Of a DNA stretch of 64,000 nucleotides, positions 24,901 through 62,736 are shown piece by piece. Made by a program: the position numbers and the translations under genes. Source of the DNA: Yuukianura sp. NJ FZ-2021 (lineage: Eukaryota); assembly GCA_046563655.1 (NCBI GenBank), contig CM102284.1, positions 5,208,001 through 5,272,000 of the forward strand, written 5' to 3'. How positions within the stretch are numbered: position 1 is the first letter of the stretch; each line of letters starts with the position of its first letter. The notes under the pieces are model-generated. The model ran no database searches and was not told the DNA's origin. It saw only the letters and a program-made list of their open reading frames with translations.

Positions 24901-27900
24901 ACTTACATTCAATTCTCAAATGATCTCCGGGCAGGGTAACGTCCAGGTCAAGTTTTGGTGATTGGCCCATAACATAATGTCCGTCAGCTTTGATTAGTCT
25001 ATTCGTTTTTGATCCAGGCGTGTCGAAGACAAAAGAAATGTTCTTCTCAGTGTCACCTTCAAAAACAAGAAAGTTAGAAAATCCGAAGTCAAAAATTAGT
25101 TAGCAATTAGATAATTGAAGAGAATTTTCCAAAAAGAACTTACTTTGCAAGAGTGTCTGAATTTTGAAGTGGTAACCCTCCATCGATGCCTCAGTTTTTT
25201 CAATTGAAAATCCTAGCAAAGAGTCGCCAGCCATCGGGAAGCTTGGTGCTTTCGGAGCAGCATATTCCGGAACTTGAAATTGAGCACAAAGACGGAGACC
25301 AATTTTGGACGACTCAGTACAAAATGGAGTTGATGTTCGTTTAGAAGCAAATCTGGACACCAAAGGAGTTTCCGTGAGCATAAAATTTTCAGCTTCTGTC
25401 CAAACCAATTGAGTCCGCATGCTCAAAACTTGAACTTTGTCTTCCGGAAGATTCAGTTTGACTTCAAACTTCCCATCTTCATTGGCAATTCCAATGTCCA
25501 TGCCCGTAGCTGAATGAAGTTTGCCTTCCAGTTGAAGTCCTGATTCGATCGGTCCTGCGCCGACACTCATTTTCGCCCTATTTTTTTTAAACAGATCAGT
25601 TTTCATAATTCTTTAAAAAATAATTAGCGTATAATACCTTATTAGCGTTGCAGCGCTAGGCACAAAGCGGAGTTTCGTATCGGTGTTAGTATCCCTGTTG
25701 TATAAGGCTCGAATATCCACTTTTCCGTTCATCTCCAGTGACAGAACAGTAGTTCCCTCAATTTCAAAGTTTAGCGGTAGACCAGATGCAGTTGGAACGA
25801 CAAATTCGTCGTCCAAGAATGTAATCGGTTCAGTAAGTTTGATGTTGTGATCTTTGGCTCCTTCCAGAAGTTGATCAAAGACTGAGTACAGTTTACCTCG
25901 ACGAAAATTTTCTCGTAGATTGTCTTGGCTAAATGATGCTGTGTAAACTGTAGTGTCTAGAACTCGAGCGTAGAAGTCACCAAGACCGCTGGAAGCAAAG
26001 TTGTCTTTGATTCGTGTAGCTTCTGACAATTTCTTTTCAACTGCGTTTCGATTAACTGGAGAAGTTGCGACGCTTCGTTTCGATCTGGAACCAGCGTCAA
26101 AAGATCTTGCCATGAACCTTCCAGCGGCTCGTTCCAGCATATGTTCAAATTTTTCAGCGTACATGCCAACCTGTGAAATTATTCTTGGATTTAGAAAATT
26201 GTGAAGAGGCAGATCAAAATATTAAAATGTTGCAAGTTTCTTTTACCTCCAAAAAGTTATAAGATCTTCCAAACAGTTGAGCGTCCAATTTACATGAAAC
26301 GGACCGTGGAATGTAAGAGTCTTGAGAAAAGACCACGTTAGATTCAGCGTCGAATCCGGTGTTAGTAGTTGCGCTGAAAGTGGAGTAGCCAAGATTTGTT
26401 GAAAATTTTCTAGGATCGCTTGGAAACTTTTTCGGTAGCGACAGTTGTTTCATGGCAAGTCGAATTTCGCGTTTCACTGGATTTGGACTCGCCACGATAT
26501 TTGCCACATGAGAGGAAATGAAAGAGCCAACTGCAAAAAGAAAATAGGTTGACCTTTGACCTTGTAAACAAAAGTTTTAGTATTAGAGAATCTAACTCAC
26601 CTTGGTTTGACTGTTCCGAATTCAAAATAGCTTGAAGTCTTCGAACATCTTGTTCTTTGAAACATCGACTTATGGCCAAATAACTTTGAATTCTCAATTC
26701 CGAACTGACCTTGATGTCTTTTAAGATTCCATAAGCTGTTTCCTTCAGTTGACTTTGGCAAGGATCTCTTCGGAAAGCCTGAAGAGCAGCCATTTTCATC
26801 CGATTGGTTGATTTCATACATTCCGTGATGTTCCCAACGGCCTCTGGTGTCAAGCTGTCCAAGTTTCCAAGTGCCTGGAGTGCGTGAACTCCTAAGTTAA
26901 TGGCCGTGTCCTCTTCGCCCATGCAACTCTCTCTTCCAATTTGACTTATGGCGTTGACCATGTCCAGGTAAGCTCTATTCGTTCCACAGTTTGGATTTGT
27001 TTCGACGCAGTAGCGATGACCTAGAGCTGATGCAGTCAGGAGTAACTGTGGGTCAATTTCAGTCGTGCGCAGAAGCGTCGTGAAGGCTGACAGAGCTGCG
27101 ATGTCCGGTCGCGGAGCAAAACTTCCGTAGACACTGAAAACGCCTACGGTAAACGGATCCACTCTTCCTTTGCCAATTAGGGTCGCCATAAATTCAATTG
27201 ATTCTGTTGTTCCAGCTTTTGCAACAGTGTTAACAAAAATCGTGGCTGCAGCGTTCGAGCATTGTGAATCGCTAGTAATCGTTCTGTAAATTGCTATAAG
27301 GTCAGCTGGATCTCTAATGGCTCTGATTGTTTTTCGGAGTGAATTGATAACTCCAGGAACAACGGCTGTTACAGTTCCAGTTCTCGTTTGCATACAAAGA
27401 TCCGTTAAAAGAAGTTTGGTGTTTTGTACTGCCAGATTTGCTGCAATTCCACCGACGTCTGTTTTGGAATGATCGAATAAAATGGTTGTAGGATTTTTGG
27501 CCTGGGAAGTACTAATTGTTGACTTCTCAGTTGAGCTTGGATTGTAGGTCAAAGACGTCGAAACCGTTGAAATGGCGTCACTACTTTTTTCGTCTGCCAC
27601 GAACAGAAGGGAGTGCGTTTCCGTACAAGTGACGCTTGTGATTATTTTCTGATTGTTCAGAGTCTGCTGACAGGTTTGACTAGAGTTGAACACTGGAATT
27701 GAGTTTTGTTCCTGAAAAGATCGAAGCGTATTCAGTTTTTAAGAATTTCTTCAAAAATTTTAGAATTTGCATCAAATTTTGAAACTTGTAACCTACCGAT
27801 GCGACCTTATAAGGTGTCCCTTGAAGAATCCAAATTCCGCCATCACGAGAGGTGCAGCTCTGTAGTGCCTTGGTCTTGACAAAGACGTTACCAGAGACGG

Positions 27901-29724
27901 TGTAAGTCGTTGGACACACTCCGGAAATGTCAGTCTCCAGAACGGGGTCATCGGATTCATCCTTCCTAGCAGTATTTTGGAACATTGATGCAAGTCCTCT
28001 TTTGATATTGACAGACCATGCAGGATCTGTTGATTCAGAACATACTCCACCAATGGCACCATCTTGGAACGAAAATCGGAGTGACGTGCCTTCAAAGGAC
28101 GACAGACCGTTGTTTTTGGTAATCTAGGTCAAAGGTCAACATTTGTAAAACCAAAATTCTTTAACAAATTTTACTAATGATTTTAATCTCACCTCCCTCG
28201 TTGGACCGACAATCTTTGTTCCTCTGACGGTCAGCACAAATTCGCAACTTGATTTTGCAAAAAGTAATACTCTTCCTTGAATTCTGATTTTACTTTCTTC
28301 GTCTGTTGTTTGAGCCAATCGGGTAATTACTTCCGTTTCAAAATTGTAGTTGTACGTATTTCCAGCAGTATACTTTAGTCTATCCGTTGCTGCAAATCAT
28401 AATTGTTAGATTAGTCTCCAAAAAAAAGTTAGTAATTTTACTAGCGTATCTTAAAAAATGCATCGTGGCAATTTTAGCCGTAGTCGACCTGGACAATGGC
28501 AAGGTCAAAAGGTTAAGGTTGTACACAAGAGAAGCTTTTTTAATCGTTCACAGGTTATCAGTTAGCGGTAAGACCTCTTTCGCTACACGCTCATGTGCGA
28601 TTAATATTGCTGCTAAGCACGTTTGTAAGATTATTAGCACGGGTTAGCAAATTTACGACCTCTGGGTGTCAGTTTGCCAATTTCTGATGGGTCATTACGG
28701 GTCATGAAATTTTGATTTCACTTCCTACAGAGTTAAAGCTGTTTTATGAAGACATTTTTTTAAAACGAGATAAAAGATTCAAGACATTGCTATCGTCATC
28801 GACAATAACGTCAACATTGATGCGCGATGCGCATCCTGGTCCATTTTTGTTTGTTTTTCTCAGTATAACTGTTGAATAAAGCCTGATCAACTTGTTTGTT
28901 CTTTTGATTATATTCAGGATTGGTTTTTCAAGTTTCGATTTCGAAAAACCGGATTTTTCAAGAAAAAAATATATAATTAAGAGAATTTTAAATTATGAAA
29001 AGCATAAAATCCAGATAAAGAATTTTTTATACATAACAAATCAAAACACATTTTGAAATCACCGTTTACCAGAAAAAAAATTTTATGCGGCGTCCAACCC
29101 TTTTTCATGGATTTCAAATTGCGATTTCTCGAATTCAATTTCAATTTCAGGAATTAATTAAAAGCAAATTAAATTCTAGCTGTATTTTAATTATTCATTC
29201 GCATAACTTTACGTTGCAATTCTAATGTATTAGATACTTCCGGGAAATTTAATAGTTCATAAATAACTCGTTTAAACCTCCGCGTATCATTTTCAGGTAC
29301 CGAATTTCCGAATTGTTACGCCACATTTTTTGAAATTGAGTAACTTTTTTTAACTTACGTTTGCAACATGCCGGGTCTGGACTACAGCTATCCTGGTTAC
29401 ACACAACTTTGGTTGGAGCTAGAAATCAAAATGAAAAAAATGACATTAAAATACAATTGAATCGTAGATTTCGCACAAAGCAAAAATATGTTTCAACTAA
29501 TAAAGGTTTAGACACAACGTTTTAGGTTTTCAAAAATCCTTCCTTTTGTTTTTTTGTTCATGATTTAACCTTTAATTAATAATTTATAATTAATAATTTA
29601 ATTAATTTTCAAAAATAGTTGAAACAATTTACGTACCTGTTAGAACAAGCGGAGCTAGCGAGACGGTGGAGACAATGACGAGTAGGATGCTGGGGATGCG
29701 GTGACCTTTGGGAGCGTGACCCAT
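15916..29724 (-). CDS. LLTP-B: multi-exon apolipophorin/apoLTP-like large lipid transfer protein (LLT domain, long beta-rich middle, vWD and C8-like C-terminus)
   Basis: ATG at 29724 opens a signal-peptide exon (MGHAPKGHRIPSILLVIVSTVSLAPLVLT; exon ends 29637). The next exon from 28389 reads TDRLKYTAGNTYNYNFET. LLT motifs ETDISGVCPTTY, HALQALGNL, LRIQSYLAI, VPTASGLPL. Furin site RSKR at 26075-26086. vWD motifs YYKTFDNKFFHFEGKCQYILASDF and GFYQGKTNGLLGTYNHE. The last exon is Cys-rich (PCFSVESPVGYKWTC..VCTSATAYQAIC) and ends with TGA at 15916. Minus-strand AATAAA at 15727-15732. Confidence 0.9.
16997..17285. repeat. Intronic tandem duplication (period about 160 nt) in LLTP-B
   Basis: AGATTCT.TAAAAATGTTTTT.AAAAAAATTAATTT..CGACACCAGTTAAAAA.TCTACACCTCA..AATTAATGATTTGTACGG occurs at about 17000-17145 and again at about 17160-17285. 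Confidence 0.8.
19990..20270 (-). repeat. Inverted, diverged copy of the 14230-15680 repeat family inside an LLTP-B intron
   Basis: The reverse complement of 20121-20219 (ATTTCAACTTTCTTGCGATTTCTTCAACTCCATCG..AGTTGCAGAA..TTTCGCAGAATTTGGTGCAAAAATTTTGCAAAAAGCAC) aligns with 15551-15648. Confidence 0.7.
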
Positions 29725-37900: not shown

Positions 37901-39150
37901 AAGCTTCATTCATCTTTCTACCTGTATTGAATTTATTCCTCGAATCCTTAGTTATAGTTGAAACAAATTTCACTCGGACTTAATGTACAGCATCTTGTAT
38001 GTTGTTACCTTACAAATTGTATTTTTCAAAATTTAAAATTTAATCAACATATTTTATATCTCCATAATACGAAACATAATTTCTAATGTTTTGTGTTTTT
38101 TATAATATCTTTTTATAATTATGTTTGTCGTTCCTTGGATAGTGCCAAATAGATTTGGGTCACACCTTCTAATTTATCTAGATTGCGATATGGTGCTTGG
38201 CTAAAAGCAGTTCCACGTTGAAGTGAAGCGTTAAACAGACCGACAAATTACAGCCCGCCCCTTGTAGTTAGACCGAAAAGTGACAAATGACACTTCATAT
38301 CATCCACATATCTCAAATCACACGTCAATATTCTCCCTCAAAATGTTTAACGATAGGTCAAAGATCATTTTCAGAGGTCAAACATCTAGTATGATCTAAA
38401 CATTTCTTTAAGCGAAACCTTTTTTTCTGATTTACATTTTGACTCTTCCGGATCTGAACTTTCTACTGCCTTGGCTCAAAGTGAATCCAAGATTACCAGA
38501 GACAGCAAAAGATTGACATCTTTGTTGATTTCTGTGAAGGCCCATCCTGGATGAGTCATCCAGAATCAATACTCCGTCATGAATAAAGAAATTCCAAAAC
38601 TTTTGTTTAGAACAGAGCTTTTTTTAAGCGACGGAGCTGGAAGGAGAAGTGCATAGGGGGTTGCTTAGGAACAAAACTACACACTAGCCCGAAATATACT
38701 GGTTGTCCAGAGTAAACTTTTTGCGCAACGTCCAATTCCAAAGTGTCAACTCAACTGATAATCGAAACTGTGGTTCATAGTTTCAATCTAGAGCAGTTCA
38801 TTAGTGGAAATTAGAAACAGAGCTATAAAACTATTATGCCAAACAGTTTTAGACCACTTCTAGGCTTCTAGGCTTCGAAAACACTTATATTGCAAAATAG
38901 CGTTATACCACTGGGGCACTACCCTACTTTAATTTAAAAAGTGCAGGTTTTAGCACATTTACAACTGAGAAAATTTCTGTTAATTATAACGAATTTCCAC
39001 AAGGGGAAAAAAGTTGCGAATTTTCTCACGCTATTAGACAGTTCCGAGGATTAAAATTTTCACAGTCAAATAAATTTTTCAGTTTAGATTGACTGTGCAA
39101 AAATTGTGCACCACATAAATTCAGAGCGCATTACAGTAGTATTTAAGTGC

Positions 39151-39163
39151 AGGTCAAAGGTCA
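39151..39163 (+). promoter_or_regulatory. Perfect DR1 nuclear-receptor element 20 nt upstream of the FAAH-A ATG (one of eight perfect copies in the window)
   Basis: Exact AGGTCAAAGGTCA. DR1 is the consensus bound by HNF4, COUP-TF/Seven-up and RXR/USP. Confidence 0.55.
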
Positions 39164-39182
39164 AAAGTACATTTGAGTAACA

Positions 39183-45438: not shown

Positions 45439-45493
45439 AACATACATATGTGCTTATAATATAATAAATAAATTAATAAAATGTAAAACAAAA

Positions 45494-46749
45494 TTAAATG
45501 CCAGCGACTTGTCGAATCCAATTTCGGTAGTAGCTGACTTTGGAGTAAACTCCGAGGCCTCCGCAATGAGCTCCAGCAGACACGACGCCACAGCAAACCC
45601 AACCAGAAGCTGTGTCTGACGATGGACACATCAGAGGACCTTTTGACGAAAAAGTTTCAAAATTCGAAAGAGAAAGTCACAAAAGTTGACTTTTTTCAAA
45701 ATTGAAAGCAAGTCTGACCTCCACTGTCTCCGAAACAAGCTGACTTTCCGTCTCCACCAGCACAAACGACTGCGTCGGAAATATGAATCGGAGTTTGATT
45801 GGCGCTGGAGTCGTAGTATTTTTTACATTCAGCATTGGATACAATCGGAATCCGAACTTTGAGCAAAGCGTTGGGCTGAGTCTGCGAAGTTTCACTTTCA
45901 ACTCCCCATCCCGCTACGACCACATACCCTGATTTGAAAATTTGAAATTTTTTAAAACCAATTGTACAGAACACAATACACAAGACTTTTGTCAAAGTGT
46001 TACCGTCGGCGACATAGTCGTCCCCCACAAGATCAATTGCAGTGACGCGATTGTTGAATTCAAACGGAGACTGAAGCCGGAGTACAGCAATGTCATTCTG
46101 ACCGTTCATCCTGTTATGAATGCCAGAAAAGTTTAAAATTTCAGTTCATTTTTGATGAAAAACGTAATTGGTCAACGTACAGGAGGGGAAAATTACGTTT
46201 TTTTAGTGAATTTGAAGGTTAAAGTTACGTTTTTCTCACATTGAGAAATATTTGTGAACGGAAATATTTCTGACAGCATGGGACACTTCGTAGCCCGACG
46301 GTGTCTTAAGGGAATGGACTCCAGCAGTGACTACATAGCGTGACACATGCGCAGTTCCACAGTGCCCAGCAGTCAGTACCAACGACGGACTGATCAACGC
46401 TCCGCCGCAAAATTCTGCACGAGTCAAGGTCAAAGGTCAAGTTAAGTGAAAACCCTAATTTTAACTTAATTGTTCTCAGATTAATGTTAGGTAAGTTAAA
46501 TAATTTACCTTTGTCAGTTTTAATGGTAACCATCCATGGGAATTCTCCTGCAGACGCTTCAACCCCGCCAACAATTTTGTCCGAGCAGTAGACGAATCCT
46601 GAAATTTCAAAATTAGGTATAATAGACCTTATTCCATTACAATTAGGTTAGTGTGGTTAGGTTAAAATTAAGTTAGGCTAAACCTAACTCCTGAACTTAC
46701 TACCAATCGATGTGAAGACCAAGATACAGAAGAACTGCAAGTTGTGCAT
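45494..46749 (-). CDS. Small secreted S1A serine protease, chymotrypsin-like (Ser at position 189), catalytic triad intact
   Basis: Signal peptide MHNLQFFCILVFTSIG; activation site DK|IVGG; EFPWM; FCGGALI; TAGHC; NDIAVL; GKSACFGDSGGPL; GVYSKVSYYRNWI. TAA at 45494. Confidence 0.92.
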
Positions 46750-47352
46750 CGTTCCAAAATGGCGATTAGGTGAGTTAAGTTAAAGTCACAAAGCGAGCAC
46801 TAAAAGTTTTCGAGAAGTCGAATGTGCTTCTACTGTGTAGTTTTGTCGAAAGTTTTTTGTAATTTCAGATTTTTAGTTGCAACTTGCAATTGAATTTGGA
46901 ATTTTCTTTTGTTTAAAAAGGTTCCCCTTTTTGTTCTATTTTGGTTTTTAAAATTTCAAAAAAAGGTTTCAAAGAATTTGTTAAGTTGGGAAGCTTTTTA
47001 TACAAAGGCAGCAAAAAATCCGCACTAAAAAAGTATCTGATTTGTAGTTTGGCAAGTTTTAAAACATGAATGCAGATCAGGTTAGTATTGCCTAACCTAC
47101 ATTTATGTTTCTCGTATTAAAAACTTGACAGAACGAAGATGAATTTATCCTCTGGTTCACTTTTCTTGTTTATGCATTTTGAAAATGAACAAAATCAAAA
47201 GTTTGCATGACTTGATTTCTTTCAGTTTCAATCGTGGCCCAGTGACTTAGGAGTCAAGTTCATAGGTCAATAACAACAATCAACCAATTTAAGCAACTTT
47301 TGTATTTTTCTTTACTCTTTTATTCTTTCCGACGAGGTCAATGACTTTTGAC

Positions 47353-48603
47353 ATGAACGCGATCCGAGTGACCTTACAACTTACTTCAGTGACATTAGCA
47401 TTTGTGCTACTTCCGACTTATATCAATGCCAACTACGAAACGGAGGACACAATTGTTCTTGAAGGCAAAAAGAGTTCTACATCTTCTATTTTTAATTAAT
47501 TTGTGCTTTTTTAATGAATTAAAAAATATTTTTATTGTATCAATGTTGATTTTAGCAATCAAAGGAGAAGAACCGAAAGAAAATCCAGACGCTCCAGGAC
47601 CAAAACTGTTTCCGTTTTTGGTATTGCTTTACGTTCGAAACTTTACAAATTAGTTCAAAATTTTGAAAATCAAGATTTCTAAAAAATCACAAATCTTTTT
47701 TCAACAAATTTTAGGTTTCGATTACCAAAGATGGAAAGAACATTTGTTCGGGTGCACTCTTAAATAAGCTTTACGTTTTGTCCAGTGCGTACTGCATGCA
47801 AAAGTAAGACTAGAAAACGCTTTCATTATCTGAAAATTTAAACTTAAAAGACGCCAAATGTCAAAAACTTATCATTCCTTGTGGCATTTAGGTTTCAAAA
47901 TTTATTTTAAACGATTCTTATTTCAAAATTTTAGCATTTCAAATGAAGAGATCTCAAAGTACCAACTTGGAATTGGATTCAAGTCGCTTGGTGGAGACGA
48001 AAAAGTTTCAGATGACAGAGGACGTGAAGGGCCCTACTATGTTCGGAGGGTCACCAAGGTCATCATGGACAGAGGATTCTATTACCAGTCCCTCAAAATG
48101 GTACTTTCAAATAATATATATATATTATTTATTTAATTTTATATCATTTCTAGCAAAATAGTCTGCTACTCCTAAAACTCGACACTGAGGTGATATTCAA
48201 CGACCACGTTCAGCCCATCTACCTCAGCGACAACTCCACTATTCCTGCACATCGTCGGAAACATCCGCTTCCGCCAATTCGAACCGCGTTGCTCTCCGGA
48301 TGGCGCAAGGGCAACGAGGTCAAAGGTCGTGACATGACATTTCTGCGCGGAGTGACACTGCGCGTGTACAGTTACGAAGAATGTCGCAAGGAATTTCTAA
48401 ATTCAACCAAATTAGACGAAGTCATCTGCGCCAACATTCCGACAAACAATCCATGTCAGTTCAGTATCGGTTCGCTCTTGTCCGCGAAACGGTACGGACG
48501 GACTTATCTGATTGGTCTACGAGAACGTGACTGTCACTTCCCCAGCGTCTTCACACGATTAGAGTACTTCGTTCCTTGGATTCGACGTAACCTCGTCCAC
48601 TGA
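47353..48603 (+). CDS. Secreted serine protease homolog without a clip domain; all three catalytic residues lost
   Basis: Signal peptide MNAIRVTLQLTSVTLAFVLLPTYINA (an in-frame ATG also lies at 47341). FPFL|VSI..ICSGALL..LSSAYC (His to Tyr), QNSLLLLKL (Asp to Ser), PCQFSIGSLL (GDSGG lost), PSVFTRLEYFVPWI. Confidence 0.8.
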
Positions 48604-49196
48604 AACCACAAAACCACAAGAACATATGCCATCAATCACCAGGCATGCGCAGACGCAATCAGAGCATCAAATTTTATACAAAACACTTTGGAAAAAGCAC
48701 TTAACTTTTTTAATAAGAGTTTTCACGCTTTTATTCATAACAAAAAACAATTGAGATCCAATGAACTACATTCGATTAAAATGTCGGTTGAGTTACCGTT
48801 TCGATTGAGAAAGACAATAAATGGAAGTTTTTTGTAGTTTCCGCTAAAAGAAAAGTTCTTTGAAATGAAGTGTAACTGTATGACTTTGTAACAATGAGGC
48901 ATAACAATGGTTACACTTTTTATGAAAAACGAGGTATGTCATTGGGTCACAAAACACAAAAACCAGAAGTTCCAAGTAGGTCAAGTTCTTGGATTGGAAT
49001 CATATCACTTTTGGTGACCTCAAATTCTGCATGCGCAGGAGGTACTTTGCGCAGTTTCTTTTTCTGGGATGCTGTCGGTTAATTTCAAGTGAAATTCAAG
49101 TTTTATTGAAATTGCAATCGTGGTAGTTGAAGTGTGGCGTTGCGGAAGGACAGTTCAGGAGACATCAGTTGAACAGTAAGGTTCTGACTGGACACA

Positions 49197-52100
49197 ATGT
49201 GGTCACTAGTGCTCAAGGTCAGTTTGGTACTCGGAGTGACCTTGACCTCAACAGTGGTGAGTCGTAAGGTCGAATGGACCGATGATGACACAATCATCGT
49301 CGAAGGTAATTTGCCAAAGTCTTTTGGATCCATTTGAACAGCATTTTTTGCAAATAGTGCAACCTATTATTTTAGCACTCATTCAACTAGTACCATTTTT
49401 GAAATACTTCAAATTATCGATTTATTTTGTATTGGATGGATTTCAAATTTAAATTTCAAAATTTCACTTTCAAAATTTCAAATTCAAAGTAATAAATGCA
49501 ATATACATACACAAAAACACATTGTGTGTACCTGGATGGAAAATTTGTGTTCAACCTTCGAAATTTTGAAAAAATTTTTTAAAATTTTGACGAAAATTTT
49601 GATTGGAAGCGACTAGAGAAGAAGACGCTCCGAACGCCGTGTTTGAGCGGAACGACATTCCATTCTTCTACTACGCTCCACCAATCCCGTCACTTCAAAA
49701 AAGACGAGGTCACGGCAAAGGTCAAAGGGTCAAACGCAGTGACCCTGGCAAGGGGTACATTCACACATGCTACACCGTACTGGGTGACCAAGGATACTGT
49801 ACTACATTCAACGAATGCTTTCCAATGCTCTACTACACTGAGGGAGATCACAAAGGAGAAATCAAGCATCCAGTACTGGCTGACCTCTTGATGTCAACAT
49901 CCGGACCGTGTCAACCACCACCTTTGTCATTCAGAGATGGTAAAAACCTCAACATTCAAAATTTCGAAATGAAAAAGGAAACAATTGAAATTCAAATTTT
50001 CCAAAACTGTCAAACTTTTGCAGATTTTGTACCGTATGAAGGAAGTGAGGAAGAAGGAGGTCAACAACCTCTGACGACCTTGGATTTCGTCAACCGAAGA
50101 GATTTGATATGTTGTCCATCAACTAAGTCTACACCTATTCCCCCATCAGGGGAACATTCAAAATATCCAACTGTTCCAACTATGTTACCAGTAATTGAAC
50201 GAGTTCAAATGCGAACGACTCCCAGTACCACGACTAACAAACCGGTACTTCAGGATTCCGAAACCGACGAACCCGAAGTAGTCAGCACTGCGCAGAAGCA
50301 AGATGCCGTAGCCGGCTTCATTGCAGCTTCGTATCAATTTCCAACTGGAGATGCTGCTCCGCCTCCTCCAAGAATTCCAACCACTTCCAAGCCGAATCCT
50401 AGCGTGGGTCAATGGGGTCACCGAATTCCGACTCGGAGCACAACGGCACTTCCGAAACTTCCCGACAATAATCTTGCTGAAGCTGTCTCAGAAAATGACG
50501 AATCAGAAGAGAAGGAAGTTAATGAAATTATTGCTGCATTTATAAAATCTACCAAGACGCCGCCCACTATGCCAACATCTCGACCTCCGGCATATGTAAA
50601 AACGAATCGACCGAAGTTACCGGTCAAAGGTCAATCATCTGACGTATCTAGCGACATATCGGTCAAAGGTCAATCGGCTGATGCATTTGCACCAATGGTA
50701 ATCCGGAAACCAGTCGACAAAAGTCCAGCTAGTACCGTTCACCAAAAGCTGACATTCCCGCAACCTAGTGGCTCCGTTCCACCTTCGACCGAGAAAGCAC
50801 CGGATGTGGACGCCAGTGTACCGATTCCTGGTGTCGTTTCAGCATCGGCGTCTCGGCCTTCAACAAAACCGAAACGGCCAATCCAACCTATTCAAAATCA
50901 GGATCCTACAATAGGAGATGTCTATGTTCCGGTCATCAGCGTAGGGTCAATGACCCCTGATGACCAGATTATTATGCCAATGCCTCCTCCAACAACTACT
51001 ACTACAACTACTGCTCCGTCTACAGTAAAATTTTCATCGCTGCAAAACAGTACGCCAAAACCAACACCGCCAGACGCTGCTCCGGCGTTTCCGTTCCAAG
51101 CTACCAAAGTTCAACTTGTGACCGGGACGAGTGGGCCGTCAGCGATCGCTCCTTCGCAACAAATTGAGCACAGTGACGCTTCGGGTCAATTCTCGAATTT
51201 GACTGAATCTGCATCTAGCGCAGCCGTAGCTCCTGAAATTGATGCTAACCCTGTACAACCTGATGCAGGAGGTGCTCAGATGACCTTTGCCCCAGAGATT
51301 GCCGAATCTTCGGTTCCTGAAATCACGACAGTGTCTACGACAACGACTACAAAATTTCCACCAATTGTCAAGGCTCCCTGTGGACGGCTGAACAGCACCT
51401 CTGATCCCAAGTACCCCTGGGTTGTAAGTATCCCGTTCCCTTAGAACTCTTTTTTTTTGAATTTTTGTAATTTGTGAGAGTTTTTTGTCCAGGCCGCGAT
51501 TAAACTAGGACCAAAGTTCATCTGCGCCGGTTCTGTAGTAAGGAAATCAATATTAAGGAATATGTCAAGGTCAAAATAAAAATTATATGCTGTTGTTGTT
51601 CGTTTTAGATCGACGAATATCACATTCTGACCTCTGCAGCCTGCGTTGCACAGTAATCTGTTTCCAATTTTTTCAAAATTTTAAAACAAAACAAAAAGTT
51701 TTCATTTCTTTTAAACTTTCAAATTTCTTCTCCAGTTTGTCCAGTACTGATATTGGGAAACTACGTGTTTACTTGGGCGAGAGGATTTTGAATTCTAACA
51801 TGGATGGTCCAACTATTATTCGGAAAGTTTTAAGAACAATGCGACACCGTGGATTTTCTGTCACCACATTGGTAAGAGTACAGAAATTACAAAAATTTTC
51901 ATAAAAGCAAAGTGATTTTAACTGAAAAAACTGAAATTTTGAAATTTCAGCGCCACGACATAGCTCTGCTAAAATTGAGCTTGCCGATTCCAATTGGAAC
52001 TAAGCGGGTGATGCCAGTTTGCTTACCGCTGGAAGACGACAGTGACTTGATGCTGGAATCTTCTGCTGAAATTGTTGGCTGGAGCTCCAATTGGAACCAA

Positions 52101-52535
52101 GTTCAAAACGAAGTGACGCAGGAGAGTCGCTTGGCCATTTGGAGCAAAGACGCGTGTATTGACAAGTATCGCTTCTTCATTCCTGACACGCACTTTGATG
52201 ATGAAGACATGATCTGTGCCCAAACGAGAACTGACATTCCGAAAAGCCAAAAAGCTCTGGCCAATCCGGTACCGCAGACGCAGGTCAACAAATTTTGCAA
52301 CATGTATTTAAAAAAAGAAATGAGCGTTTACTTTTACTTTCACCGTTTCTTTTCAAAATTGTTTTAGGAAGTTGAAACAGACGGAAGTCCGTTGATTGTG
52401 AAAGGTCAAACTGGAATTTACCAACAAATTGGCATTAGTTCCTGGAAACTGGGATCAATATCTAACTTTCCTCTGGTTCTCACGAGAGTTAGCGCCTATC
52501 GTCACTGGATTGAAAAGAATCGTCTGAGACCATAA
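49197..52535 (+). CDS. Clip-domain serine protease homolog with a very long Pro/Thr/Ser-rich linker
   Basis: Signal peptide MWSLVLKVSLVLGVTLTSTVVS; RVKR; clip CYTVLGDQGYCTTFNECFP..GPC..ICCP; roughly 400-aa mucin-like linker; CG..YPWV; LTSAAC (His to Ala); HDIALL; ETDGSPL in place of GDSGGPL; TRVSAYRHWI. TAA 52533-52535. Confidence 0.85.
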
Positions 52536-53531
52536 AATTAACAAATCAAGTTAACCTAATACCAATGTTTTAGTAAATTATTAAAATTAGTTATCTTGAA
52601 TTATTTGTTAGTATTATTAATATTATTAGATCAATTTTGATCAAAAGAAAAACCAATAATTCAAAAAAGAAAAAGAAAACAAGTAATTTAAAATTAAATT
52701 ATTTATCAAGTGAAAATCAATTCGTTTTTTTAAACCCAATGTTCATTGCACAAGAGGAAACAATACGAAAGGTTGCAAATTATAAATTTCCAATAGAATT
52801 TTAATACACAGTAGTAATCATCATTCTTTTTAACAAAAATTTAGCAAAAGTTTCAGAAGAAAAAAAAACGTCCGTAAAATTCATAAAATACAAGGCTGTG
52901 GCGTGCACACAACTACAAGAAGCTCCAATTAATGGCGAACTACGGAAATTATTTTGTGGTTGGCGTTTTAATGAAGCAAAATTTATTGAATGATTTTTTT
53001 CATTTATGGTCAAATTCATAAAATTTTTTAAACAAATACATTTATCACCTCAAGCACCACATAATTGTCAAAACTTAGTATAAATAACTATGACCTTCAT
53101 TAACTTAAATGACTTTTGTCCATATGTCACTTTCCAAACTAATCTTTGCAAGTAAGAACAGTACAATACCGAACAGTAAGTTAGTAAGTACATAATATTT
53201 TTCAAAGTTAAATTTAGTAATATTTAAAGTTAATATTGAAAGTGAAGTTAGTACATTGAGTGTAATGTACTAGATTTTGTATTTGAAAATTAATATTTGT
53301 TAAAAATTAGTTTCGAAAACACAGTTGTTAAAGTGAGCTTAAGAATTTCATAAGGAATATTATTTCTCTTGGGAGTATTGATGCACTTTGTGCCCACATT
53401 TTCAATATTAGTTAATGTGTTAATGTCATCAATTCAAGTTTCAATTAATTTTAAAATTGTCAATTTAAACACAGCTTCTTTGGTCAGAAGTCGTAAGGTC
53501 AAAGGTCAAATTCCCCATGACTGTCTGCTGC

Positions 53532-56500
53532 TTAGGAAGCTGCGAGGTCATCGTAAGTTACAATTGTAACGCTCAATTCTCCTGGATGTCGTTCGGATTG
53601 CTTGCGACCTCGGCCAACCAATGGGCTTGTGATTGACTTGGTCACATTTGTCGTACTTTCACCAAAGACAGCGCATCCCAAGAAATGGTCCCTTCGTAGT
53701 CTCCGGTGAGCCCATAACTACAAAATACTTAGGTAAGTAAATTTAAAAGTCAAAGGTCAAAGGTCATTCACTTTTGAAATTGAACCTACCTCAATAAAAA
53801 TAGGCTTGCAAATGTCGTAGCGAAAGAAGACTCCTTGGAGGTTGAACTTTGGGTGTTGCGAATTCGGGACCAAAGCAGATCTCAATTTTTCTCGTTCCAC
53901 GCGAATTATACAATATGTATTGTCCGCTGGAGCAGAATTAACGTTAACCCAAGATTTAATTGACGAAATAACAACAATTTGAGTTAATTACGATTAACTT
54001 TAAATGGCTTACGCTGCGCCAGGCCATTGGCCCCCTCGACTGTAATAGAAGTGACAACCATTGGTGTAGAGCAGCAGCAGGAACAATATTTGGATGGTGC
54101 TGGAAAGTCCTTCACCAGCCGTTTGACTACGACTGGAGTCTCGGTGTACATTCTTAAGAAGTATTCTGTTTCGATCTTGGGCTCAAATGTCGTCGGTAGC
54201 AAAATGTACCTTCCAGTGTCCAACGTCCCTGAAAAGTAGACACTTCTGCCCTGGACATAGTCCGATGTCACAACTCTCTTGCCCAAGTGATGAGCCCTGT
54301 ATCGTCGATTGTCCTCGACTCCCATAACGTGAAATCCAATACTTTTGTACCTTGAGCCGCCACTTTGCTTTGTCCAAAATCCACGATTGTCCGTCTGTAG
54401 TAGAAAGACGACCAGCTCCATTCCGTCTTTCGGTACTTCGAAGCAGTACTACAAAAACAGTACAAAATATTTTCAGTTTTTGAAATGCATTTTGTGAATT
54501 TTGATTTGTATTCTAATTTTTTCCACACAAAACTGACCTGTGGATTCTGAAGAAAAGTAGGATGATTTGGACAGCCTCCGGCGTTGTTAGGCAACGTCCA
54601 CTCTCCCTTAAAACAATTTTCGTGCCAAGTTTTCTTAAAAGTGAAGGCAGAAGTGTTAATCAAGTGACAAATGCATAATTCACTGAATTCTGTCACAAAG
54701 TCATCAAACGGAATCCTAAAAACGAAAATTTCGAAATCATTTTCGGAAGTTTTTTTCTTATTTTGAAAACTCGATTTCGACGGAATTTCACTTTTGAGTA
54801 GTTTTGTCAATTACCAAAATTCACCGTCATCTTCAAAAGTTAGACCGAGTTTCTCTCGTTCCGCTTTCGAAATTTTGGACCACTCGGGTGATCTGGAATG
54901 AATTTGAATTAGTTGCCGAGGACTAAAAGCATGGGAACGGAAGCTCTTAGGCGAAGTTACGTTGAGAGGGCAAAGGTCAGCAGAAGCCGTGCTTGACATT
55001 GACACAACACCTCCATTTTGTCCAGAACTTTCTCCGACATTTGACATAGCAGCAGAAGCTAAGGCACTAAGCATCCAGAAATTGACTTAAATTACTAGAG
55101 CGTAGTGTCGGATTCTGGTTTTAGCATAAGCAATATTTCGAATTTGTGGATTTCAAAAAAGCACTTTCACCAAAAGCTTACAGTGTTTTTTTTTTTTTCT
55201 GTGACTTGCCCTTGTAAAGCTTCTCTTATTTGCACTAAACTTACGAGTCACTGAATGGTCCATTCCATTCCTTAGCACCCCAAGGATTTCGTAGACGCAG
55301 TAGCGTCAGTTTGTCTCGTTCTCTGTGTTTTCAAGAATTGAAATTAATTTGAAAACCAAAATTTTAAATTTTGAAAAAATCTACACTTTACTTAAAGTAG
55401 GAGAAGAGCGATGTTGAGCCCAGATTGATTGTTTTGACTGCGGTGATTCCATAGGCATGACCAAGAATCAAACCATTCTTCGTCCTTGTTTCAAATAAGG
55501 ACGAATCAGTGGCCTAAGAATTTGTGTTTATGATTATTGTAAAAGTATACTCACCAAATTAGTGACAAGAATTTAGTACATTTAGTACAATTTAGTACAT
55601 TAAATGTAATTTGTACAAGAAACGCTCACCGTAATAGCACAACACATCAGCGCATGTTCATCATGTTGACGTAACAGAGTTTTACGTAATGAATTTCGTT
55701 TTTCCTCCTGGTCGTATCCATTGTTTTTCAATTCAATCATCTCTGACAGTCCGGAAGTAAAGTCCACAAGGGCGTCAGCCAAAGTCCCACCTTCCATGGA
55801 TCCATAAGAGCCACAAAGCCTAAATTAATTGAATTTAAACATTTACTAAATGTTTCAAAAAACTGAAATTTCAGAAACTTATAAAGTTCAAATGAACGTT
55901 AAAGTGTTTATACTTGGCATAAGCTTTCTCCAGTAGAGCACTCCAGAACTCGTTTTCAGTAGTCGAGTGGCAGAAGATCAGTTGTCCATCGATTGTCGGT
56001 AGACGATCATCCACAACAACTTCCAACCACTTCCCAAATCGCTGTAATTCCAACAACCAATTACAAATTGGCAATTTTGAATTAAATAAATTTTGTTTTG
56101 AAAAGTCAACTTTCTATACCCAAAATCTGAAACAGAATATTCCACCGTAATTCTCCGGATGTGTAGGATCCCATTCCTAAAAAATTCGGGTATTTCACAT
56201 TATTTTTACATTTGTAGAAAAATTGTTGAGATCTTTGAATTTTGACTGACCTGGCCTTTGTAGTCGGGAATGACCTGTGACCAGAGTGACTTGACGGTGG
56301 CCAATGACGAACAGGCAGCCACGAACCAGCAGTTGCCCAGTCGCCCTTGGGTCACATCCTTTGAACTGGCTTTCTCCACGAACAGCGAAGGACCCTCACA
56401 CAGTTCCTAAATTTAAAACGGCAAAATTTGGAAATTACAAACCAATTTTCAAAATTCAAAAAGTTGTGAAATAATTTTATGATATTGATTGGTGTACCGG

Positions 56501-56674
56501 TGGTCGCTTCCACTGAACCGTTCCACCAAGCTGCTTTGTTAAATTCAAACTGTGTTCACTGGCCGTGAACAGTGGATCTTCAAAGAGTTCTTTGGCACCA
56601 ACACATTTCTTGTGCAGGGTCTTATAGTCTTGACCTTTGAACTTCTCAATGCCGCTACTCCCAAACAAACCCAT
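53532..56674 (-). CDS. CAPN5: Calpain-5/TRA-3-like atypical calpain (protease core, domain III, C-terminal C2/T domain)
   Basis: [32 protein letters not shown] (catalytic Cys); [25 protein letters not shown] (His); LRNPWG (Asn); [26 protein letters not shown]2-like tail ending TYDDLAAS* (TAA at 53532). No EF-hand domain was seen. Confidence 0.93.
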
Positions 56675-58211
56675 TGGTCACGCCTTGAAGCTGAAGTCTC
56701 ACCAAGTCACTGATAAATTTTTTTTTCGAAACCTGACAAATTGCGAAACCAGAATTTAAAGTTTTAATGATGAATTCGGAATTCAGCCCTTAGTACAATT
56801 TACTCTAATTTCACACCTTCAGCAATAAATTTGATCTGTGTAATTTCTCCAGTTCTATCTGCTTGCTAATCTCGTACAACACTTGCATATGAAATCTCGA
56901 TCGTCTCACAACATCCTTGTTATGTTTAGAATTCTGAAATATTTGTGGAAATTAAAAATGATGAATTGCAATTTCGAAATACAAAAGTGTATTTTGTGTC
57001 TTACGGTTAAATTGATTAGCGGAATGACGACAAATGAAAGACAGAAGACGGAAGGAGGAACAGCTCATCACTATTCTTAAAACACAATTACCTAATTTAA
57101 TGACTAATGAAAATGATTGAGCTGTCTATACTAGGATCTAACATAAGTACGAGGCCAGACGACAGGGTGGTATGTTCTAATGTAAACACCAAAAACATCA
57201 TCATCTCGGATATATCCCACTTCAAAACATACTCAAAATCTCACTTCCACTTTCCAAAGTGGAATTGTATACACATGTTGACAATAAATACAAAAAAAAA
57301 AGTTGAAATCATATCCCTCTGTGTATGCCATTTGAGTAGGAATTTTTCATCAAAAGTTTAAAAAAGTAATAAAATCACAAACATTTGTAATTAATGCAAT
57401 TCAATTTTGAAAATGCATTTTCGTCCAAAAATTTAATTTTAAATTTTTTGTTAGCAGAAGCAGAACTTTTCGAAAAGCGGAATTGTACATAGAATTTCAG
57501 AATTGATAAATTCTCAAAAATTGAAAAACTTTGCAATTACACAGAAGTGCGTTTCGAAAAATTTGCAATTATTGAGAGATTTTTTTTTTGACTAATTCGT
57601 CTTTTTTTCAGAATTTATAAGTTTGTTACCCGTTTTGTATTCAAGCAGGAATTTCAATTTTGTTTGGATTAGTGACTCTTCTTATTTTCGGAACCCGTTT
57701 CATTTCATTATTGTTGTATTTTTCTTATTTTGCAGTTTACAAAGTTCTTCATTAGGCTTAGCAAGTATAATGAAAATTTTGCGCATTCTGGACAGACAAC
57801 AAAAATTGTTTTTGCAAGGAAAAAGTTTTTTTTTCGCTTATTAAAGTTCATTCCTCTCCTCATCTAAGCTGGTATTTTACATTGTTTGACAAGCTTAAGA
57901 CCTTTGGTCCATTCGCGTGGCCTTCCACTTGATCCAAAGGATTTTCTTAAGTAGATTTTCAACTTTTGGACACAGGGAAAATTTGCGTGCAAAAAAACAA
58001 TGGATATGCAAAAGATTCCGGCTTGTGTTTCTTCTCCAAAGGTTGTTGTCAGATCCTGTGTCAAAGAATTCCATTGTCTTGTCTTCTGCTCCCACTTAAC
58101 TGCGGTCCAACTGTCAATTACTACTAAAACACTTAAATTAATTTTCATTAATTAGTAAAGTAATTAGAAACTTAGCTGGTTAGAGTTTTTTGTAGAAATT
58201 GTCCATAAGAT

Positions 58212-60393
58212 ATGAAGTTAGGTTTAGCCTTGCTCCGTTTGAGTCTCTCAATAGTTGCATTTGAATTGATTTTTCTATGTCCAGTGACCTCTGCATTCCG
58301 ATGGGAAGATGACGATTCTGTAGTTGTTGAGGGTAAGGTTGAATTTTTAAGTCAATTTGGAAAGTATTTCTTAAAATTCAAAAAGTTTCATTTTTGCTTC
58401 TCTTTTTTAGCGTTGACCTCAAGTGCACTTTTGAAGCGTCGCGGTGGCAAGTTTCCGTTTACATGGCCATGGGAGAGTCAAGGGTTTCATGGCAGAGGTC
58501 GAGCAGAGAATAATGTCATTGACCCCGACTTTACTTGCTACACGACCTTAGGAGAGCAAGGCGTCTGCGCAACGCTGCGAGAATGCTACCCTATGCTGTA
58601 CTCGGTAGAGTACGGAAAAAGTCGTCAAGAGTCACTTGAGACCACTAGTTTAATTGACACGCTCAAATCCATTTCTGGACCTTGTGATTTTCCAAATTTC
58701 GGCAAATTTCGAATTGGTACAAAAAAAATCCGAAAGTTATACAATGGATTTGAGAATTTTGAGTTTGATTTTTGGCCTCCTTATAGACATGCCGGACAGC
58801 CTAATTTGTTGTCCAAGCAGAATCGTCTTTCCGGAGCCTGGAATGGAGTATCTGACCAGCACTACTACTCCGAAAACAACTACTGCAAAATCTGCCAAAA
58901 CTACGACTACAACTGGGTCACCAAAGGTCAAGGAAGGAGATTCGGCTGTTCCAGGGGTTACACTTGAGCAACTGACTAAAAAAGAGAGACCAGCATCATC
59001 TCCACCAGAGGTCGTTCCAACAGTACCAGACGCCGTGGCGGCTCACTTTCACCGTGAATACATTTGCGGGTTCAAAAACGAAAGTGGAATGGGCGCAATG
59101 AGTGCGGAAGAGGCTTCAAATCGCTTTCCATGGATAGTAAGATTTTCAAAAATCTTTGATATAAAAATTTCAAAATGACGAAAAAATTTTGGATTGAAGG
59201 TGGCTCTTGTCGGAAACCGAGGTCACTTTTGCGCTGGTGCTCTGATTGATCGCTACAACGTCCTGACTTCAGCTTCTTGCACATATTTGTAAGCTAACTT
59301 TGGTTTAAAACAAGCCTTGACCTTTCACTTTTACGTTTATTTTGTAAGTTGTGTATTTTAGCATTTTCTAAATTTTGGACTTTAGCATGACCTCTGAAGA
59401 CGTTTCGAACTTGCAAGTGTATTTGGGAGACTACAAATTGCATTCAGTTGGTGATGGACCTCTGATTATTCGTAAAGTTGCAAGAATTATTTACCATCGT
59501 GCTTTCGACAACCAAACTCTTGTACGTACCACCTTCATAAAATCGAACCCATATTTTGAAATTGAAGTTTAGAAATTTAAAATTTTAGTTCTGTTTTGAA
59601 TTTTAGAAAAATGACATTGCGATTTTAAGATTCAAACTTCCAGCACCGGTCGGAACGGAGCGCGTTCTTCCAGTATGTCTTCCAAAGAAAACATTTCAGC
59701 GTCGAAAAGCAGAGCTGCAACAAAACATGCTCGTCGGAAACGAGGCTATTCTGGCTGGGTAAGTATGAAATTAATATAATCTCCTTTTCAAAAATTCTGG
59801 ATCTTAAAAATTTTACTCTTGATTGAAAACTTCTGATTTTTTCAAAAAACAAAATAAAAAATCTCTGTGTCGATAGGTGGGGTCGCAATTGGAATCCATC
59901 TCCGGTTCCAGTGCTTCGAAAAGCAAAGCTACGGATTTGGAACAACGAAGACTGCCGAATCAAGTATGGGTACCTCGCTCGATCTGGAATCACCGATCAC
60001 ATGCTATGTGCTTACCCACCACGACCGACGCTGGCGCAGTCTCCCAGTGTTGAAACAGCACCAGCAGATAAGGTCACCAGCATAACAACCGGTGACAGTG
60101 TTATCGTGCCGGAAGTCACAGAAACCAATCCGATTCCGGCTAAACCCACCGAGACAGTACAAAGTAGCAACAAGAATGTACGACACTCCGAAGTGTCCAT
60201 TTCGACAATGCCAGAAACCGAATTTCATGACTGTGTCGGGGATACCGGTGGTCCACTGATTGTCTTAAATGAAGATCAACGTTACGAAATTGTTGGAATC
60301 GTGTCATGGAACATCGGTTGTAGTCATTATCCGTACATTCACACTAGGGTAGGCAGCTATTTGAACTGGATAGAAAAAAATAGGCATCGCTAA
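58212..60393 (+). CDS. Clip-domain serine protease homolog with a large insertion in the protease domain
   Basis: Signal peptide; clip CYTTLGEQGVCATLRECYP..GPC..LICCP; Thr-rich linker; ICG..RFPWI|VAL..FCAGALI; LTSASC (His to Ser); NDIAIL; CVGDTGGPL (Ser to Thr); TRVGSYLNWI. TAA 60391-60393. Confidence 0.87.
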
Positions 60394-60978
60394 ATATTTT
60401 TTACGAAAATTACAAATTACACAAACTCTCCCACAATCCGCGAATTCTTGAAGTTCTGCTCAATAAAACTTCGGTTTTTGTCAAAATTTTCTCTAAAAAA
60501 CTCTCTGTTTTTTCAGCTTCGTTTTTTTTTCTCAAATTTTTTTTTGCATGTTTTGACAGTTCTCTGTGCAGTTCAAAGGCACACTTCAAGGCTACAAGAG
60601 TAATAGCCGCCAACGCCCAAGAAACCGGCTCGTCTTCATTAATCTTCCAAATTACAGAAATTCCTCAGAGATGATAAATTGAGATCACTTTTTTCACAGT
60701 CTGAAGTGCTGCTTAACAATTATTTTCGCTACGGAGAAGATAACGATGTATAAAAAAAATTGCAACAACAGGATAATTATTGCAAGCGTGAAAAAATCTT
60801 GCCAATTTGAAGATGTGATTGAACTTTACTAAAAAAAAACCTTCGACAATGTAATTTATTGCACCAGTTTAAACTAAAACTCCCCATTTTATTTCGGAAA
60901 AATTGAAAAAGGAGCGACAGCCTTCAAAAGAATCGGACCAGTTGAAAAGTTGGACCAGAACAAGAAACTTGTGCAAAA

Positions 60979-62736
60979 ATGAAAATTGGCACAATTTTGG
61001 CACTGTGGTGCTTGACCTCAGGTCAACCAAAATTTGCAAACTCTTTGATCCCGGGTGATTTGGGGGATGAAGACACCGTTGTTATTAATGGTAATTCTTC
61101 CAGTGAAATTTTGCTCTTGAATTTTGAAAGTTTCGTTGACCACATGTATTTGATTCCTTCTATTGGACACGACGATTTTTTTTTCAAATGTTGAAATTAT
61201 AAAATTATATCAATTTTGTTATAAATTATGTTTTTTTTTTCATTTACATATTTTCAGCCGCCACTGATGGAGAATGGGATGAAATCGCTGAAACCTCAGC
61301 AGGAGGAAACCGGCACAAGCGTCAATTTTCAGTATTTTATCCAGCAGTACTTCCAGCTGAAGTTCCAGTGAAATTGGAAGGCAGTCCTTGCGATTCGCTT
61401 AAAAATGAGCGTGGAAATTGCACAACAATCAGCGATTGTTACCCATTGTTGTATGCATCTCCTGGTGAAGAGAATCGTGAGCCAGGATTGGTGGACATGT
61501 TCAAGGCCAATTCTGGAGTTTGCGAAGATGTCGCCGTTGGTGGATTTCGTACGTACGGAGCTCTGTTTCCAGCGTTTCGTACAGGTAAAATCTTGATACG
61601 CATGCACTTAAGTTAAAAAGTGACACATGTTTTTTTGCAGTTTTGCGCAGTCAGCAGGAATTGATTTGTTGTACGTCGGGTCAACAGAGGTCAAGGCCTA
61701 TTCCAAATCCATTTCCACAACCACCAAGAGCAGAAAAATTTGTAGTAGGTGGCAGCAGCGTCAATGACATTTCGAAATTCCCGTGGCTCGTATCCATGCA
61801 TATCAGAGGGAGACACAGTTGTGGCGGATCGCTGATCACCGCTAATACGGTTCTCACGGCTGCTCACTGTTTGATGGGCTTGACCTCTCGGGATGTTGCG
61901 ACCATGAAAATCTATTTCGGACATCACGACATTTCTCAGGCAGCGGCATTTCGAGGTCAGCTTGAGGTCAGGACGCCTGCGCAGGTCAAGTATCACCGAG
62001 CTTTCAGCATGCGCGGATTGGTAAGGTCAAGGTCAAAGGTCACAGTGTAAAAGAAACTTTGGCTCACATGAATTTTTTGTTTGTTCAGAACGATGACATT
62101 GGTTTGATTATTCTGAATTCTCCAATTCCTGCAAATCATGCCAAAATCAAGCCCGTGACGCTTGCTACTCTTGGAGGAAGTGACAAGGAGGTGACAGTGG
62201 CCGGTTGGGGTCAAACTAGTTGGACATCTAGCACTTCATCTAGACTTCTGGAAGCTACGATGGACTTGTGGAGTCATAGTAAATGCCAACTGAAGTACAG
62301 TGGATTCCAAGTGCCCGTAAGAATCTCTCCGGACAAACAAATCTGCGCTGGGTCTCCCGGCAAGGATTCCTGTCGGTATGTGAATTCTGACATTTCTGAC
62401 AATTCTGACATTTAGTGGGTTTGCTTTCACTGAACTTTCACTTTTACCTTTTTTCTTGTTCAGGGGCGATTCGGGAAGCTCTCTTCATGTAAATCGAAAT
62501 GGAGTTTATCAACAAGTTGGTATTGTCAGTTTTGGTGGCAAATGTGGCGAATTCCCAGGTTTGAGATTGTTTTCACTACAAATCTTAGTTCAAGTATCAT
62601 TTGGTGTTGTGCTAACAATTAATTAACGTTAGGATAAACTTAAACGTGGATTTAAACTTACTTTTCATTTCAATTAGGTGTTTACACCCAACCATCCGCC
62701 TATAGCGCCTGGATTGAAAAGAACAAAAAAGACTGA
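60979..62736 (+). CDS. Clip-domain serine protease, catalytic triad intact, trypsin-like S1 pocket
   Basis: Signal peptide; RHKR; clip CDSLKNERGNCTTISDCYP..GVC..LICC; activation site EKF|VVGG; TAAHC; NDDIG; GKDSCR|GDSGSSL (Asp189); GIVSFG; GVYT..AWI. TGA 62734-62736. Confidence 0.9.

Follow-up and report, generated by a model that had tools for sequence, protein, structure and literature searches.

A stretch of 64,000 nucleotides from Yuukianura sp. NJ FZ-2021 (NCBI GenBank assembly GCA_046563655.1, contig CM102284.1, positions 5,208,001 to 5,272,000 of the forward strand; hereafter the window) carries eight perfect copies of the 13-mer AGGTCAAAGGTCA, a direct repeat of two AGGTCA half-sites with a one-base spacer (DR1; DR0, DR2 and so on denote other spacers), and these lie mostly in tiny introns of unrelated genes. 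The locus thus raises the question of whether the copies form a local nuclear-receptor switch of lipid and immune genes, a splicing signal, the remains of a repeat, or part of something larger. No hexamer of the window is more over-represented than AGGTCA, which we counted 125 times over both strands where an order-2 Markov model predicts 29.9 (z = 17), and the eight 13-mers would appear to be the perfect-consensus extreme of a dense population of nuclear-receptor-type half-sites spread across the window rather than a local lipid-gene switch.

Eight exact copies and a favoured spacing

A pattern search of both strands returned all eight exact copies that an earlier note on this DNA had listed, with the same coordinates and strands; none arose in 100 dinucleotide-preserving shuffles, and at up to two mismatches the 13-mer has 32 sites against 2.03 expected. 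As the note had also described, six of the eight are in short introns (60-94 nt). Two of these belong to the lipid-transfer gene LLTP-B: the copy at 26550-26562 (minus strand) is sense in the 70-nt intron 26531-26600, with the acceptor 19 nt downstream, and that at 28126-28138 (plus strand), in antisense orientation, is separated by 2 nt from the acceptor AG of the 69-nt intron 28124-28192. The copy at 41042-41054 (minus strand) is antisense in the 60-nt intron 41037-41096 of FAAH-like gene A, 5 nt past the donor GTAAG, and that at 46427-46439 (plus strand) is antisense in the 94-nt intron 46415-46508 of a minus-strand trypsin-family gene, 12 nt before the acceptor. In the 72-nt calpain intron 53718-53789, an antisense copy at 53754-53766 (plus strand) is preceded by a one-mismatch unit, making about three heptads at 53747-53766. 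The sixth, at 62030-62042, is sense in a 68-nt intron (62021-62088) of a protease gene of trypsin/CLIP type, where it completes a triple half-site (DR0 then DR1; 62024-62042, plus strand) that begins 3 nt past the donor. All of these intron boundaries are predicted, four by the gene model (26531-26600, 28124-28192, 46415-46508 and 62021-62088) and two by a local GT..AG and open-frame reading (41037-41096 and 53718-53789).

The two remaining copies are where the note had placed them, one just before an ATG and one just after a stop codon. The former, at 39151-39163 (plus strand), ends 19 nt upstream of the ATG of FAAH-like gene A, in the promoter or 5' leader. The latter, at 53496-53508 (plus strand, antisense to the calpain gene), starts 23 nt past a TAA in a calpain-strand frame, putatively the last calpain exon, and so probably falls in a 3' untranslated region; a plus-strand exon that the gene model predicts there has no Pfam support. 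Both orientations relative to the transcript are represented (three sense, five antisense). When the eight copies were aligned with 40 nt of flank on either side, the only invariant columns were the 13 of the motif, and no others were even nearly invariant, in agreement with the note's statement that the flanks share no other similarity and against a transposon remnant or larger interspersed repeat.

The variant elements that the note had named were likewise all present. Besides the triple half-site, these comprise a DR2 on the minus strand at 39877-39890 (TGACCTttTGACCT as read on the plus strand), which leaves 4 nt to the acceptor in intron 39798-39894 of FAAH-like gene A; three plus-strand half-sites at 23810-23839 with spacings of 8 and 4 (the DR4 being 23824-23839 and the third half-site at 23810), which run antisense across the acceptor of intron 23817-23908 in LLTP-B; a minus-strand DR0 at 49237-49248 (TGACCTTGACCT on the plus strand); and near-DR1 copies at 38355, 48317, 50621 and 50660. 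The last two are a pair of one-mismatch elements, CGGTCAAAGGTCA, on the plus strand at 50621-50672; they fall within the exon that codes for the Pro/Thr/Ser-rich linker of a CLIP-like protease, and VKGQS is the peptide encoded by each.

One arrangement dominates the pairs. Exact half-site pairs take the DR1 form eight times and the DR0 form twice, other direct spacings up to 30 nt occur at most twice each, and inverted or everted pairs are almost lacking; at up to one mismatch in the 12 half-site positions there are 23 DR1 sites against 3-5 for DR0 and for DR2-DR5. The density of half-sites would predict only about 0.1-0.5 DR1 copies in place of the 8 exact and 23 near ones. The spacer is A in 18 of the 23 DR1-like sites, and the 3' half is the better kept, the 15 one-mismatch sites having their mismatch in the 5' half ten times and in the 3' half five times. 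The commonest non-trivial 12-mer of the window, GGTCAAAGGTCA, has 11 copies. There is no general habit of 7-nt duplication, as other non-trivial hexamers recur at offsets of +6, +7, +8 and +9 with similar frequency (51, 64, 61 and 56 times); the hexamers most repeated at +7 are all sub-words of the DR1 motif, and heptad arrays extend to about three units at most. A single favoured spacing in a single relative orientation, specific to one motif, is the expected product of a dimeric reader.

A review of HNF4 structure (PMC10315846) names HNF4, and likewise homodimers of RXR and of COUP-TF, as binding direct repeats of A/GGGTCA that have a one-base spacer. In it HNF4 is given a strict preference for a 3' half of the type CAAAGTCCA, and the idealised DR1 consensus is not counted as a natural HNF4 site, on the basis of vertebrate HNF4-alpha data. 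In the window, CAAAGTCCA (the HNF4-specific 3' half, H4-SBM) is not enriched (1 against 1.6 expected), but CAAAGGTCA is (20 against 1.0), so that the sites resemble the generic RXR/USP or COUP-TF/Svp type and not that of HNF4. Two extended single half-sites are also in excess, AAAGGTCA (28 against 4.5) and TCAAGGTCA (13 against 0.9), partly through overlap with DR1 and DR0; they correspond to the extended half-sites of other receptor classes.

Half-sites in exons, short introns and the remaining DNA

The excess of AGGTCA is not confined to one part of the window, as it is the top hexamer within the coding and within the non-coding parts separately, with 68 copies in exons (15.7 expected), 16 in short introns of 27.7% GC (2.0 expected) and 36 in all other DNA (8.7 expected). 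Its specificity is six bases deep, AGGTC being followed by A in 125 of 161 cases. The one-step neighbours of AGGTCA are overall near expectation (580 against 534), with GGGTCA, AGGTTA and ATGTCA alone raised about twofold, and a search among them for depletion of a precursor found none. Most half-sites (96 of the 125) are solitary, and their flank preferences are weak.

Within coding sequence the excess was measured against a synonymous shuffle, in which codons are permuted among positions of the same amino acid, holding protein and codon usage fixed. The coding parts contain 57 copies against 15.8 ± 3.7 in the shuffles (maximum 31 in 500), and both orientations contribute (sense 37 against 8.6, antisense 20 against 7.2). 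When all 4096 hexamers were ranked by this measure, AGGTCA came 1st (z = 8.7) and TGACCT 9th, and the others of the top 20 were mostly overlapping pieces of the motif. The excess recurs in every gene with enough coding sequence: 14 against 5.4 in LLTP-A, 14 against 4.9 in LLTP-B, 6 against 1.1 in the FAAH-like coding sequence, and 9 against 2.6 and 8 against 1.2 in protease genes. An excess in either orientation at silent positions suggests a cause at the level of DNA rather than an effect on RNA or translation.

Gene structure was predicted by coding-potential segmentation followed by a two-strand Viterbi gene finder with GT/AG constraints, splice matrices and a minimum intron of 45 nt; this gave 90 trusted short introns (median 79.5 nt), to which the local open-frame reading added two, for 92. 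Six of the eight exact DR1 copies fall in short introns, which make up 12% of the window (P = 7e-5) or 24% of its non-coding DNA (P = 3e-3). The 23 DR1-like sites at up to one mismatch are divided among exons (11), short introns (7) and other DNA (5), or 0.34, 0.91 and 0.21 per kb. That exons hold imperfect DR1 elements and introns perfect ones is what coding constraint would predict.

The hexamer is present in only 11 of the 92 short introns, which rules out a general intron signal. Exonic copies show no bias toward exon ends (13 within 30 nt against 14.0 expected), and by a hand estimate the eight repeat elements inside introns lie no nearer to intron ends than chance allows (P about 0.06); the proximity to splice sites on which the earlier note had remarked is about what such tiny introns give by chance. 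A positional effect does exist for one orientation: antisense copies, which read as the pyrimidine-rich TGACCT in RNA, lie within 19 nt of the acceptor in six of nine introns (P = 0.014), while the sense-oriented triple site at 62024 abuts its donor. TTGAC was found in 9 of 89 intron 3' regions, which are otherwise T-rich and have no strong branch-point word. One reading of the orientation bias is that, near an acceptor, the element may be tolerated only in the orientation compatible with a pyrimidine tract.

A proposed dimeric reader and its alternatives

The explanation that we tentatively prefer, at somewhat less than an even chance, is that an abundant dimeric protein preferring the DR1 geometry reads the word, with weak selection or conversion linked to binding as the force that maintains it. 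AGGTCA would then be a DNA-level and probably genome-wide recognition signal, kept above expectation on both strands in short introns, in all other DNA and, by way of silent codon choice, in exons as well, with DR1 with an A spacer as its single favoured compound form. The likeliest reader would be a nuclear receptor of the RXR/USP, COUP-TF/Svp or TR2/4 (HR78) kind, with HNF4 a poorer fit. Upkeep throughout gene-rich DNA may be due to weak selection or to a conversion bias tied to binding. Perfect 13-mers would gather in tiny introns, presumably because these are the only parts of a gene body where 13 bases are free of coding constraint, leaving one-mismatch DR1 elements and single half-sites to the exons; within introns, splicing would filter orientation, the pyrimidine-rich TGACCT strand being tolerated beside acceptors and its purine-rich complement lying close to a donor or at a greater distance from the acceptor. 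The counts, their division among compartments, the specificity of spacing, the unshared flanks and the lack of the HNF4-specific form are direct observations on the window, and from them we infer that a protein binds, which one it is, that selection acts and that the pattern extends to the whole genome.

The proposed extension draws on contigs of X1, a further read set from this organism, and of X5, from a second organism; both sets were compared with positions 39000-58999. Many of these contigs match the window at DR1 places alone and then run into unlike sequence: nine X5 contigs end at 53766, with an agreement of 0.48 among their continuations, and X1 contigs join 39169 to 53749 and 46443 to 53750. 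This points to copies of the DR1 motif scattered over many further loci of both genomes. The X5 contigs covered five DR1 copies and, among the differences listed, none fell inside them, which is not evidence of conservation. In the X1 contig over 40552-41381, the 41042 copy is unchanged and the five differences are all elsewhere. The earlier note's proposal of a genome-wide motif marking exon boundaries accordingly gains from this dispersal in its first half and fails in its second, given the 11 of 92 introns and the lack of exon-end bias.

A search of metagenome contigs for an orthologous locus found none. At least 120 such contigs, diverse in composition, contain an idealised three-unit 20-mer. 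These are unrelated to the window (the match is 43 nt at the motif only), do not share its composition signature, and have an approximately twofold excess of AGGTCA outside the match (329 against 157); they were not used as background. Some metagenome contigs (L062, L055 and L038) have same-strand AGGTCA clusters every 125-150 nt that look like half-site satellite arrays.

Several observations count against a maintained recognition signal. Half-site clusters are spaced as in a Poisson process (coefficient of variation 1.03), unlike the grouped sites of enhancers, with pair distances up to 1200 nt within random scatter, and no long-range periodicity of the kind expected from chromatin phasing was found in the window. 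Fold enrichment is nearly equal in exons (4.3-fold) and other DNA (4.1-fold), as a mutational process blind to compartment would also produce, and a density of about two half-sites per kb inside coding sequence is far beyond the needs of an ordinary receptor regulon. Of the 7 and 6 aligned sites in the two LLTP paralogues none is common to both, and FAAH-like gene B has nothing in its introns to match the DR2- and DR1-bearing introns of gene A. All of the statistics, moreover, come from one 64-kb window.

Alternatively, one could suppose that there is no reader, and that a hexamer-specific bias of mutation, repair or gene conversion drives AGGTCA upward with DR1 as a by-product. A fold enrichment that differs little between exons, short introns and other DNA and holds on both strands, the Poisson-like spread without clustering, and the paralogues with sites at different places are all what such a bias would leave behind; a point-mutation bias, however, does not explain the preference for the +7 offset, in which DR1 so greatly exceeds expectation and which other hexamers lack, nor is any one-step neighbour depleted as a precursor. 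We know of no process in animals with six-base specificity of such strength, and consider this explanation improbable, if worth keeping in view. The remains of an interspersed repeat or of an (AGGTCAA)n heptamer microsatellite are a very unlikely source of the sites, even though a DR1 with an A spacer amounts to two heptad units, about three units occur at two places, and the three-unit 20-mer is found in so many metagenome contigs of diverse organisms. Those contigs are unrelated to the locus, the 40-nt flanks hold no conserved column outside the 13-mer, arrays of at most about three units and the lack of generic 7-nt duplication do not suggest a microsatellite, and insertions cannot explain an in-frame excess at silent positions.

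A role in splicing, whether as branch point, pyrimidine tract or intronic or exonic enhancer marking exon boundaries, would account for the antisense copies close to acceptors and for the several copies that touch a donor or acceptor, and TTGAC fits the loose branch-point pattern yUnAy. It would not account for the rarity of the word and of TTGAC in short introns and their 3' regions, for the enrichment of both orientations in exons without end bias, or for the enrichment outside genes, and the proximity of the elements to intron edges is about that of chance; we regard it as quite unlikely, and the preference of the earlier note for a signal in DNA over one in splicing is upheld. Equally doubtful is a local regulon of the kind that the note had envisaged; here DR1 elements would act as enhancers, at work in the gut or fat body, through which HNF4 or another receptor co-regulates the genes for lipid transfer, amidases and proteases. 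The perfect consensus and the copy 19 nt upstream of an ATG speak for it, lipid-transfer and amidase genes are plausible targets, and HNF4 controls lipid transport genes in vertebrates (PMC10315846, available portion). The sites, however, favour CAAAGGTCA over the HNF4-specific 3' half, the excess extends to all genes, to non-genic DNA and to silent codon positions, homotypic clustering is lacking, the tandem FAAH-like paralogue is without elements, and copies of the motif are scattered over further loci in two organisms. What survives of the note's interpretation is therefore the DNA-level signal with a DR1 sequence, and what does not is the local HNF4 regulon.

Genes of the window, and comparison with known systems

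The gene identities given in the note hold in Pfam searches, with the CLIP domain matched only weakly. Two large lipid-transfer genes (Vitellogenin_N, open beta-sheet, DUF1081 and VWD), each of about 30 or more exons, stand tail to tail: LLTP-A at 2900-16100 on the plus strand and LLTP-B at 16400-28200 on the minus strand, old paralogues with 27% identity over 838 aligned residues. One 16-mer that includes a half-site, ACATCAAGGTCAGTTC, recurs in one exon of each (11029-11058 and 26694-26723), antisense in one gene and sense in the other; once the hexamer is given, its ten extra shared bases would arise by chance with an estimated probability of about 0.01. An ANKRD13-like gene is located near 33-35 kb. 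The FAAH-like (Amidase) genes A (39200-41950) and B (43100-45420) are in tandem on the plus strand with the same exon structure; their exons align readily as protein and their introns are wholly diverged. Of several trypsin-family genes, one has the weak CLIP match and another a CLIP-like N-terminus with a long Pro/Thr/Ser linker. In the latter, a 613-codon open exon (49603-51441, plus strand) upstream of the trypsin domain exon encodes a CLIP-like cysteine motif and then the Pro/Thr/Ser-rich linker, which has no Pfam match; it holds the two near-DR1 copies that encode VKGQS. Calpain occupies 53.6-56.7 kb on the minus strand. In the second organism, a contig over its domain III exons (54481-55129) is covered about 6-8 times as deeply as its neighbours and has a joint going back 649 bases, which suggests a tandem duplication or multi-copy segment. 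The nuclear-receptor genes of the organism lie outside the window.

Protein searches returned almost no close relatives, with one weak match (33% identity) to an insect clip-protease-like protein, and an atlas look-up went no further than vitellogenin-like sequence of arthropod or chordate type, so that the gene set looks arthropod-like and belongs to a thinly sampled group. Rfam searches found no family in the window. A second word family, unrelated to AGGTCA, is the usual filler of short introns: AATTTTGAAA / TTTCAAAATT, with 37 copies of the 10-mer in the window, and TTTTGAAA, with 87 copies against 29 expected in non-coding DNA. It often forms imperfect tandem units of 7-10 nt (e.g., 40439-40499, 43721-43786 and 49440-49488).

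If the excess of AGGTCA holds for the whole genome, no surplus word of this animal genome would be commoner than a textbook hormone-receptor site, by which silent codon choice would be shaped on both strands. It would represent a clean case of DNA-level selection or biased conversion in coding sequence, achieved without transposable elements of the sort that carried such sites through mammalian genomes, and a testable system for how far DNA-binding proteins dictate codon usage; a neutral mutational bias six bases deep would be unusual in itself. For annotation, a perfect DR1 in this genome should not be taken as a sign of HNF4 regulation. A more ambitious and rather doubtful extrapolation from the window is that of a transposon-independent, genome-wide carpet of orphan-receptor sites (AGGTCA and DR1) that reaches into coding sequence by way of silent codon choice and serves as a global mark of gene bodies or chromatin rather than in the control of individual genes. 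A pioneer-type receptor that activates the genome wholesale might use such a carpet as its landing pad, or the word might denote chromosome identity.

Bacterial DNA uptake sequences and Chi are short words that far exceed expectation in coding and non-coding DNA and are fitted in by codon choice. AGGTCA shows the same excess in both kinds of sequence, but theirs is prokaryotic and served by known machinery of uptake or recombination, and we know of no such machinery for this word in animals. In a limited search of the literature we found no description of a pervasive AGGTCA or DR1 excess in an arthropod genome or at synonymous sites; in the available portion of a Daphnia paper, AGGTCA is mentioned only as an EcR/USP inverted repeat (PMC5569996). 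The sites of the window are like the canonical DR1 element in their two direct A/GGGTCA half-sites, one-base spacer and consensus 13-mer (PMC10315846, available portion), and we count the A spacer in 18 of 23 sites and the better-kept 3' half as further likeness. They differ in abundance and distribution, with about two half-sites per kb and one DR1-like site per approximately 3 kb in every gene, coding sequence included, in a Poisson-like spread; known DR1 elements are sparse, clustered and gene-specific. To HNF4-specific sites the likeness is that of the CAAAG core and DR1 geometry, and the difference is the unenriched CAAAGTCCA.

Receptor sites in primate Alu elements (a DR2 consensus, and HNF4-alpha sites) are also many dispersed AGGTCA-type repeats, as far as described in the available portions of PMC1785376 and PMC3252374; they are carried by a transposable element with shared flanks, whereas the flanks in the window are unrelated and many of its sites are made through silent codon choice. 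Similarly, the NR5A2 motif in the short interspersed elements (SINE) B1/Alu, which figures in mouse zygotic genome activation, associates an orphan receptor with an abundant half-site-type word near many genes (bioRxiv 10.1101/2022.05.17.492379, available portion). The NR5A2 site, however, is monomeric, extended and repeat-borne; in the window the extended form TCAAGGTCA is raised, but DR1 is dominant and there is no repeat. What distinguishes the sites described here from these precedents is that they have no carrier repeat and that they reach into coding sequence.

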